A model generated the notes under the pieces. That model did no database searches, had not been told where the DNA came from, and saw nothing but the letters and a program-made list of their open reading frames with translations. A stretch of DNA of 64,000 nt, taken from contig CAVTKS010000007.1 of the NCBI GenBank assembly GCA_963735375.1, forward strand, positions 10,434 to 74,433, written 5' to 3'. Below, in pieces: positions 11,046 through 38,307 of this stretch. Origin of the DNA: an uncultured Acidimicrobiales bacterium. GTDB taxonomy: Bacteria; Actinomycetota; Acidimicrobiia; Acidimicrobiales; VFJN01. Both the position numbers and the translations under genes were made by a program. Within the stretch, counting starts at the first letter, position 1; each line of letters opens with the position of its first letter.

Positions 11046-11064
<19 letters not shown>
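9410..11064 (+). mobile_element. Large serine recombinase (integrase) gene with ~8 frameshifts
   Basis: FAFYGRVSTEDQQD catalytic motif, GRYLGGRPPYGY, ILMNPRYTG, HEPLVS, Zn ribbon LSGLLHCSLC..YYRC, coiled coil; ends inside the tRNA-Leu 3' arm. Confidence 0.85.
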
Positions 11065-11130
<66 letters not shown>

Positions 11131-36978: not shown

Positions 36979-37099
36979 CCTGCTGAGGGTAGAGGGTGCC
37001 GCCTGCTGTCAGATCTGCTCGTCCGGTTCCGGTTGTCAGATCTGCGCATGGAGTTCGTAAACTGCCGTTCAAGCCGGCCCGGCATTCCGGCTGCATATC

Positions 37100-37180
37100 G
37101 GTTCCGGGGACGACAACCCCGTGGGAGAGGCGACCGGGCTGTCCCCACCGTCCACAAACCGGAGCCACCTCGACGGAGGT
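37100..37180 (+). ncRNA. Candidate NAD+-I (nadA motif)-like riboswitch with SD-sequestering hairpin
   Basis: GGACG/CGTCC stem, ACAACCCC bulge, GTGGG/CCCAC stem, outer GGTTCCGG/CCGGAGCC; ACCTC-GACG-GAGGT hides the SD; directly 5' of nadA. Confidence 0.6.
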
Positions 37181-37188
37181 ACCACCCC

Positions 37189-38307
37189 ATGCTTCGGCTC
37201 CAGACCCCGCTCGACGAGCGGTACACCGCAGCGTCCTCAGACGACCTGGCCCCGCGCATCGCGGCGGCGAAGGCCGCGCTGGGCGACCGTTTGTTCATCC
37301 TCGGCCACCACTACCAGCGCGACGAGATCATCCGCTGGGCTGACGCCCGTGGCGACTCGTACCGCCTCTCGGTGCTGGCGCAGGAACGGCCAGAGGCCGA
37401 GCACATCGTGTTCTGTGGCGTGCACTTCATGGCCGAGTCGGCCGACATCCTGACCGGCGACCACCAGACGGTGGTCCTGCCCGACCTCAACGCCGGCTGC
37501 TCGATGGCCGACATGGCCGACATCGACGAGGTCGAGGAGGCCTGGGAGAGCCTGGCCGGCGTGACCGACATCGACCGGGTCGTGCCGATCACGTACATGA
37601 ACAGCTCGGCAGCCATCAAGGCGTTCGTCGGCCGCCACGGCGGCGCGGTGTGCACCTCCACCAACGCCCGCGCCGTCCTCGACTGGGCGCTCGGCGATGG
37701 CCCGGGCTCGTCGGGTGGGCAGGGCGACCAGGTGCTGTTCTTCCCCGACCAGCACCTGGGCCGCAACACCGGCATCGCCATGGGCTACGGGCTCGACGAC
37801 ATGCGCGTCTGGGATCCCCGCAAGGACCTGGGCGGCCTCACCGAGCGTGACTGCAAGGAGTCGACCTTCCTGCTGTGGCGCGGGCATTGCTCGATCCACC
37901 AGCGGTTCCGCCCCGAGCAGATCGCCGCGTTCCGGACCGAGCATCCCGACGGCATCGTGATCGTCCACCCCGAGGTGCCCCACGAGACCGTGCAGGTCGC
38001 CGACCAGGTCGGCTCGACCGACTACATCATCCGCGCCGTGGCCGATGCGCCCACCGGATCGACCATCGCGGTCGGCACCGAGGTCCACCTGGTCAACCGG
38101 TTGGCCCAGGAGAACCCCGACAAGGCCGTGGTGTCGCTCGACCCGCTGATCTGCCCGTGCTCCACCATGAACCGCATCGACGAGCCCCACCTGGCCTGGG
38201 TGTTGGACGAGCTGATCGAGGGCCGCGTCGTCAACCCCATCAGGGTCGACGACGCCACCGCCGAGTGGGCGCGGGTCGCGCTCCAGCGCATGCTCGACAT
38301 CACCTGA
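37189..38307 (+). CDS. nadA: Quinolinate synthase
   Basis: ILGHHYQRDE, FCGVHFMAESA, AGCSMAD, TYMNSSA, FFPDQHLG, HCSIH, VHPE, CPCSTMNRI. Confidence 0.95.
   Translation: MLRLQTPLDERYTAASSDDLAPRIAAAKAALGDRLFILGHHYQRDEIIRWADARGDSYRLSVLAQERPEAEHIVFCGVHFMAESADILTGDHQTVVLPDLNAGCSMADMADIDEVEEAWESLAGVTDIDRVVPITYMNSSAAIKAFVGRHGGAVCTSTNARAVLDWALGDGPGSSGGQGDQVLFFPDQHLGRNTGIAMGYGLDDMRVWDPRKDLGGLTERDCKESTFLLWRGHCSIHQRFRPEQIAAFRTEHPDGIVIVHPEVPHETVQVADQVGSTDYIIRAVADAPTGSTIAVGTEVHLVNRLAQENPDKAVVSLDPLICPCSTMNRIDEPHLAWVLDELIEGRVVNPIRVDDATAEWARVALQRMLDIT

Follow-up and report, generated by a model that had tools for sequence, protein, structure and literature searches.

Architecture of the nadA leader RNA

The stretch of DNA analysed here, 64,000 nucleotides (nt) of a contig from an uncultured Acidimicrobiales bacterium (hereafter, the window), carries a gene for quinolinate synthase, NadA, whose open reading frame at 37189-38307 is matched above the cut-off by TIGR00550 (302.4 bits). 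With uvrC lying upstream in divergent orientation and the next gene in the 3′ direction, encoding a GH65 hydrolase, being convergent, nadA stands alone. The leader of this gene, which a preliminary description had read as a candidate variant of the NAD+-I (nicotinamide adenine dinucleotide) aptamer, is a strongly conserved folded RNA of Acidimicrobiia. It spans window positions 37070-37191, a larger element than the one first described, and runs from a 5′ hairpin (P0) through an outer helix, helix P1, an 8-nt ACANCCCC bulge and helices P1a and P1b to a hairpin at the ribosome-binding site (RBS). Its parts, with the promoter elements and the gene, are as follows.

37033-37038, + strand: −35-like hexamer TTGTCA of the nadA promoter, a weak candidate, with a 19-nt spacer to the −10 hexamer
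37058-37063, + strand: −10 hexamer TAAACT (TANNNT type), with the predicted start at about 37070
37072-37092, + strand: P0, the 5′ hairpin, of 6 base pairs (bp; 37072-37077 with 37087-37092) and the 9-nt loop CCCGGCAUU
37078-37082, + strand: kissing contact, 5′ strand CCCGG, pairing with 37134-37138
37093-37099, + strand: single-stranded linker GCAUAUC (consensus CAUAUC), from column conservation
37100-37107, + strand: outer (basal) helix, 5′ strand GGUUCCGG, pairing with 37159-37166
37108-37112, + strand: P1, 5′ strand GGACG, pairing with 37149-37153
37113-37120, + strand: 8-nt bulge ACAACCCC (family consensus ACANCCCC), from the sequence read and family conservation
37121-37125, + strand: P1a, 5′ strand GUGGG, pairing with 37144-37148
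37126-37128, + strand: 5′-strand bulge, AGA here, of 1-3 nt and not conserved in sequence, from the alignment
37129-37143, + strand: P1b, GGCG (37129-37132) with UGUC (37140-37143), closing the 7-nt apical loop ACCGGGC (37133-37139)
37134-37138, + strand: kissing contact, 3′ strand, inside the apical loop
37144-37153, + strand: continuous 3′ strand of P1a (CCCAC) and P1 (CGUCC), from sequence and alignment
37154-37158, + strand: asymmetric internal loop separating P1 from the outer helix, with the A-rich ACAAA on its 3′ strand, from fold and alignment
37159-37166, + strand: outer helix, 3′ strand CCGGAGCC, from covariation
37167-37180, + strand: RBS hairpin ACCUC-GACG-GAGGU, abutting the outer helix and holding the Shine-Dalgarno (SD) sequence GGAGG (37175-37179)
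37189-38307, + strand: nadA (quinolinate synthase; TIGR00550), 372 amino acids, monocistronic

The nadA ATG at 37189 follows the fold at a distance of 21 nt. The minimum free energy (MFE) fold of 37095-37200 reproduces the outer helix, P1, the 8-nt bulge and P1a, and also forms the ACCUC/GAGGU hairpin, which covers four of the five SD bases. Much of the preliminary description is borne out here: the strings GGACG, ACAACCCC, GTGGG, CCCAC and CGTCC lie where it had read them (37108-37112, 37113-37120, 37121-37125, 37144-37148 and 37149-37153), the enclosing helix of GGTTCCGG (37100-37107) with CCGGAGCC (37159-37166) is present and forms in the MFE fold, and so is the hairpin ACCTC-GACG-GAGGT (37167-37180) said to bury the SD. 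It had missed P0, the kissing contact of P0 with the apical loop, and the CAUAUC linker. Across the family, the linker columns 37094-37099 are each conserved in 67-87 of 96 rows, and the A-rich internal loop is 2-5 nt long, its last A being kept in 69 of 96. For the apical part, RNAfold of the dominant family sequence type yields the GGCG/UGUC form of P1b. In a first apical model (GA/UC plus GG/CU), two pairs failed to form in 38 and 22 rows, and on these counts the model was replaced by the P1b form, which is 96.7% paired. A further string, ACCACCCC at 37181-37188 between the SD and the ATG, is one mismatch away from the bulge motif; it lies outside any bulge context and has no fixed conserved place in relatives.

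Conservation and covariation

Neither folding energy nor the bare pattern separates this fold from chance, and to that extent both weigh against a functional element. The fold of 37095-37200 has a z-score of −0.74, with 40 of 200 shuffles folding at least as well. The 4.84-Mb genome holds 736 ACANCCCC strings, three of which form an 8-nt bulge flanked by two perfect helices of 5 bp and facing an uninterrupted 3′ strand, where the rate obtained from 20 permuted control strings gives a chance expectation of ~3.5 per genome. It is the position before nadA, together with conservation and covariation, that establishes the leader RNA as real.

Loci of nadA were drawn from 60 relatives and 20 further regions. 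In the first relative set, ACANCCCC was present in 26 of 29 leaders, mostly as ACAUCCCCGU. A MAFFT alignment of 38 leaders, made without structure, had 91.7% of its cells paired, compared with 28-57% when the 3′ partners were slid by 1-3 columns; P1 was paired in all 38 leaders, and seven of the eight outer-helix pairs changed on both sides. A second alignment of 100 rows was fitted to a covariance model of the family (R1, built from 36 distinct cores) and thus favours the R1 helices; with the revised apical model, 96.5% of its cells were paired, compared with 26-50% in slid controls. In this alignment 28 of 33 pairs changed on both sides, a number reached by none of 500 shuffles (shuffle mean 15.4), and the covariation score was 0.387 versus 0.141.

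P0 was paired in 97.8% of cells, all five inner pairs changing on both sides, and the outer helix in 93.0%, with changes on both sides in eight of eight pairs. For P1 the figures were 99.2% and four of five pairs, and for P1a 99.1% and all five, the second P1a pair being UA in 47 rows and CG in 46. All 99 distinct rows keep the penultimate P1 pair, C37111:G37150, as C:G, and the bulge reads exactly ACANCCCC in 86 of 97 true members, with each base conserved in 91-96 of 96 rows except at the N position. The layout first proposed, with P1, bulge and P1a on a continuous 3′ strand before nadA, is real and conserved, both helices being 99% paired. An alternative pairing suggested at the same time, GGGGAC with GTCCCC, fared differently: it exists in the window and is not conserved, being 71.9% paired where shuffles averaged 70.0%; of its six pairs, two fail in 50 and 70 of 99 rows.

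The kissing contact, which is absent from model R1, was paired in 97.7% of cells in the 100-row alignment. Here the P0 loop CCNGG (37078-37082) covaries with the apical-loop CCNGG (37134-37138), the centre pair being UA in 58 rows, CG in 27, GC in 8 and AU in 1, and two flanking pairs changing from CG to UA in two rows each. In the structure-free alignment it was paired in 38 of 38 leaders (centre CG 30, UA 7, GC 1). G-U pairs are frequent, which places the constraint on the + strand RNA.

Distribution and gene association

The genome of the window contains a single R1 copy (matches were counted at E <= 0.01). Within the order, R1 matched 89 of 151 genomes from 70 of 122 genera, a count that takes in the unpublished genomes G078 and G101, from neither of which any sequence was taken, and each match was single and full-length. 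Across the class it matched 47 of 151 genomes, 34 of them outside the order, and across the phylum 5 of 151, four of which belong to the class. Among ~140 phylum genomes, R1 found no true copy outside the class; the sole match there (G354, 29.5 bits) lacks an adjoining nadA.

When run on 100 selected sources, R1 gave one match each, and 97 of these lie 17-92 nt upstream of a same-strand nadA start. The remaining three (G178, G244 and G354) have no nadA, are among the four weakest matches and were set aside as false positives, which leaves 97 true members, every one with nadA downstream. A pattern scan over one genome per species yielded at least 120 stretches, 80 of which were read as loci. 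Among the matches listed, 57 of the 80 loci were true R1 matches (42-107 bits), of which 56 have nadA downstream and one ends at a contig edge; the 23 others have neither an R1 match nor nadA and are attributed to chance. The listed true loci carry the titles Acidimicrobiia, Acidimicrobiales, Acidimicrobiaceae, Microthrixaceae, Iamiaceae and Candidatus Poriferisocius, or generic names of Actinomycetota or Actinomycetes metagenome-assembled genomes (MAGs). Three true copies of 83-97 bits (L179, L207, L216) come from MAG contigs, 2.7-22 kb long, whose labels read Burkholderiales, Nocardioides and Bifidobacteriaceae; these contigs are probably mis-binned or mislabelled Acidimicrobiia.

Some members depart from the consensus. 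In four (L121, L124, L125, L130) CCAUCCCC replaces ACANCCCC, with the rest of the fold and nadA kept. One (L134, genome G135) lacks the 8-nt bulge altogether while keeping P0, the kissing loops, the helices and nadA, and may be a decayed or ligand-independent copy. Two others (L126 and L128, family f86) are stripped down to the outer helix, P1, a ACAUCCCC bulge and P1a as a plain hairpin of 6 bp; neither P0 nor a kissing partner can be recognised, and nadA starts 81-83 nt further on. Absence of the RNA occurs as well: four genomes of the same order (G044, G051, G053, G056) have the same long nadA type (64-73% identity) and no RNA copy, and seven other genomes with a shorter nadA type (41-48% identity) are also without one.

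Promoter placement

In 145 of 149 distinct members, model position 1 is preceded by a TANNNT hexamer whose end lies 0-14 nt away, and in 139 the distance is 3-7 nt. Control windows placed 40, 80 and 120 nt further upstream contained the motif in 4 of 149, 5 of 148 and 1 of 110 cases. This placement suggests that transcription starts at about 37070, at the foot of P0, in which case the whole fold would be transcribed. Contigs from RNA libraries of relatives cover the leader (a 114-nt contig of X2 spans 37068-37164 and a 341-nt contig of X1 spans 37111-37446) and are proof of neither transcription nor start site.

The −35-like TTGTCA is shared, as GTTGTCAGATC-like, by the closest relatives only. 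It is overlapped by the proximal copy of a 27-nt direct repeat at 37002-37055 (74% identity), each copy of which contains the palindrome CAGATCTG. As the proximal copy is common to the closest relatives only, in the form GTTGTCAGATC, and the distal one is private to this genome, we rejected the two CAGATCTG boxes as a conserved operator; the repeat looks like a local duplication.

Relation to known NAD+ riboswitches

In NAD+-I riboswitches (Rfam RF03013, nadA), as described in the available parts of the papers cited here and below, domain 1 comprises a P1 helix with a penultimate C:G pair that reads the adenine, and a ACANCCCC bulge that binds two Mg2+ ions and the diphosphate (PMC7297122). 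There follow a P1a strongly conserved at 7 bp, then an internal loop with (A)GYG on its 3′ strand, the two G of which pair with two cytosines of the bulge, and lastly P1b (PMC6859854, PMC7297122). All 101 reported representatives are tandem, neither domain having been found alone, and the hosts named are Acidobacteria (PMC6859854). Domain 1 binds adenosine diphosphate (ADP) and adenosine triphosphate (ATP) as well as NAD+ (PMC6859854, PMC10702441).

The RNA described here shares with NAD+-I its position in the nadA leader, a P1 with the penultimate C:G, the 8-nt ACANCCCC bulge on the 5′ strand, a P1a that begins with G, a 3′ strand continuous across the bulge, and an RBS placed in a downstream helix. 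In contrast to the 7-bp P1a of NAD+-I, P1a here has 4-5 bp and is followed by a 1-3-nt 5′ bulge and a P1b of 3-5 bp. The GYG internal loop and the tertiary C:G pairs from bulge to loop are absent, the 3′ strand running from P1b to P1a without a loop; in L032, L035, L130 and L131, the stem that joins bulge and apical loop has every nucleotide of its 3′ strand paired. Instead of a tandem with a second bulged domain and the RBS in P1′, there is a single domain, as had been proposed: none of 97 leaders has a second exact ACANCCCC within its transcribed part. P0 with its kissing apical loop, the CAUAUC linker and the additional 8-bp outer helix are present beyond NAD+-I, and the hosts are Acidimicrobiia rather than Acidobacteria, in line with the earlier claim of an actinobacterial host outside the reported range.

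Several results speak against the link to NAD+-I. The Rfam nadA model, whose failure to match had been named in advance as a refutation of the preliminary assignment, scored 14.1 bits on the leader of the window (E=1.9 in 311 nt), well short of the gathering cut-off of 37.5, and at best 21.2 bits on the leaders of relatives; none of 41 relatives' genomes had a match over the cut-off. On canonical metagenomic loci the same model gave 39-68 bits, with 38 matches in 20 loci, mostly two per locus. Conversely, R1 reached at most 16.1 bits on 80 canonical NAD+-I loci. The connection rests on ~10 nt and their context, with no significant model match. Furthermore, the bulge in the solved NAD+-I structure is held by the GYG loop, and with this loop absent here the pocket may differ; in the four members with CCAUCCCC, the base altered is the A against which the ligand adenine stacks in NAD+-I.

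Each of the two models, Rfam nadA and R1, lays its own bulge onto that of the other family. With the same 8-nt bulge and neighbouring C:G on the same strand before the same gene, unrelatedness is very unlikely and, whether by descent or by convergence, the shared bulge points to the same ADP-type pocket. What stands of the proposed NAD+-I variant, then, is the bulge, the C:G pair, the layout and the single domain; the 7-bp P1a and the GYG loop are missing. P0, the kissing contact and the CAUAUC linker together make up a different architecture, not a trimmed NAD+-I. The nadA leader RNA is probably a new single-domain relative of the NAD+-I aptamer.

By description, the nearest published architecture is the ubiB motif, a variant of nadA domain 1 in Nocardia with nine known representatives (PMC6859854, PMC7297122). 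Both occur in actinobacterial hosts, and in both a single ACANCCCC-type domain precedes a plain, strong hairpin that contains the RBS and takes the place of a second bulged domain. As described, the ubiB motif keeps the 7-bp spacing and the internal loop, neither of which is found here, and it precedes ubiB/aarF rather than nadA; the available description mentions no 5′ hairpin or kissing loop, both of which are present here. The NAD+-II class (pnuC motif) is likewise reported to sense NAD+ and to control an NAD-related gene (PMC7749635). It precedes pnuC, however, and its solved fold, which comprises three helices, a triple helix and a long-range pseudoknot, is reported to bind nicotinamide mononucleotide, NAD+ and nicotinamide riboside. 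A permissive Rfam scan of the leader gave no NAD+-II-type match. Weak matches to Guanidine-II (15.4 bits), L31-leader, malK-III and sR4 in the 311-nt scan are ascribed to chance, that to Guanidine-II merely reusing P0 and GGGGACG..CCCC. At gathering score, the only Rfam match in the entire window is a transfer RNA of 85 nt with a long variable arm (11046-11130, − strand). In the literature, we found no description of an NAD+ riboswitch in Acidimicrobiia, an actinobacterial nadA NAD+-I, an NAD+-III or, by title or abstract among the papers listed, a nadA kissing-loop leader, in a search that mostly left subscription journals and supplements outside, so that an earlier mention is possible.

Proposed mechanism and alternative explanations

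We propose, with a probability of about 0.62, that the nadA leader is a conserved single-domain riboswitch-like RNA that binds NAD+ or its reduced form, NADH, through the ADP moiety and represses nadA translation. Sequence and fold, covariation, the kissing contact, the link to nadA, the distribution and the placement of the promoter are shown by the data above, whereas the identity of the ligand, the direction of the switch and the stacking are inferred. Transcription is predicted to start at the P0 foot. From P0, the CAUAUC linker leads into a long coaxial stack (outer helix, P1, P1a, P1b), which the ACANCCCC bulge breaks. The P0 loop folds back onto the apical loop through 5 bp (CCNGG with CCNGG) and locks the fold, a contact that stands in for both the tertiary pairs from bulge to internal loop and the second domain of NAD+-I. 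In NAD+-I domain 1 the same two features, the bulge and the C:G pair that is invariant here, bind NAD+ by its ADP half along with two Mg2+ ions; the RNA may thus be expected to bind NAD+ or NADH via this moiety. The ligand would then stiffen P1 and the outer helix, and the abutting, SD-burying RBS hairpin would stack coaxially upon them and be stabilised. With NAD+ plentiful, nadA translation would be repressed.

Of 85 distinct compact tails, 52 have 0-2 nt between the outer helix and the beginning of the RBS hairpin; the median distance from fold to start codon is 23 nt. Constrained folding of 88 compact members nonetheless speaks against a simple switch. When the aptamer was enforced, 57 members had at least four of the five SD nucleotides paired, and when its 5′ half was taken away the number was 60; enforcement raised SD pairing in 16, left it equal in 48 and lowered it in 24. 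No mutually exclusive switch was found, and coaxial stacking is proposed for this reason, as a conjecture. In a few members (e.g., L087 and L091) the 3′ strand of the outer helix is drawn into the RBS hairpin, an arrangement that would fit an ON switch and likewise weighs against repression.

These observations feed the alternative that survives best, albeit an unlikely one: a riboswitch for another ADP-containing or NAD-pathway compound (nicotinic acid adenine dinucleotide, ADP-ribose, or ATP/ADP), or one that turns nadA on. The breadth of ligands bound by NAD+-I domain 1, which takes ADP and ATP besides NAD+ (PMC6859854, PMC10702441), would suit a different ligand, as would the missing GYG contact and the possibility that P0, the kissing loop and the CAUAUC linker reshape the pocket. 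Against this, all 97 verified members precede nadA alone, which suits end-product feedback, and the ligand-contacting bulge and C:G pair are almost unchanged. An ON switch would account for the competition between RBS hairpin and outer helix in some members and for the slightly lower SD pairing with the aptamer enforced (24 less versus 16 more); most members, however, form the RBS hairpin without recourse to the aptamer strands, and the SD pairs with the aptamer's own 3′ strand in only 6 of 88.

Somewhat less probable again is a leader that is read by a protein or governs messenger RNA (mRNA) stability rather than sensing a metabolite, with the ACANCCCC bulge as a convergent or inherited protein contact. 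Hairpins at the 5′ terminus can stabilise mRNAs, and P0 could act in this way; the RBS hairpin, moreover, looks constitutive in folding. What argues for a metabolite sensor instead is the complex, pseudoknotted and covarying fold, as is typical of riboswitch aptamers, and the near-invariant 8-nt bulge, which is identical to a solved small-molecule pocket with the same C:G and before the same gene (PMC7297122).

That the RNA is an ordinary NAD+-I member, scoring low because of GC-rich drift, is highly improbable. Gene, bulge and P1 geometry are the same, but the second domain and the 7-bp P1a with its GYG loop are lacking, and the scores of 14-21 bits stay below the cut-off that canonical controls, mostly tandem pairs, exceed; these three points contradict it. 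In addition, neither the Rfam nadA model nor the consensus descriptions in the available text (PMC6859854, PMC7297122) contain the extra conserved parts. Finally, functionless chance pairing in GC-rich DNA, for which the z-score and the bare layout count (3 observed, 3.5 expected) would leave room, is refuted by the comparative data, namely class-wide conservation, covariation and the fixed position before nadA.

Significance

Two classes of NAD+ riboswitch are in print, going by the available text of PMC10702441, and NAD+-I poses puzzles of its own: its domain 1 binds only the ADP half and cannot reject ATP, and its second domain has no clear role (PMC6859854). A natural and widespread family that keeps the ADP-binding bulge, dispenses with the second domain and the GYG lock, and has a kissing loop instead offers a comparison for NAD+-I. 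It would show what the bulge pocket minimally needs, and whether other scaffolds can add selectivity. A bolder and rather doubtful extension is that the family represents a third NAD+-sensing architecture, in which P0, the kissing loop and the CAUAUC linker turn back along the stack, close over the ACANCCCC bulge and do the supposed job of the second NAD+-I domain. If so, the RNA may read the nicotinamide half and tell NAD+ from ADP and ATP, which NAD+-I reportedly cannot. The R1 covariance model and the ~150 sequences provide material for curating a new family. The proposed riboswitch would also add Acidimicrobiia, a class of Actinomycetota that is large and for the most part uncultured, to the groups with RNA-based NAD+ control.

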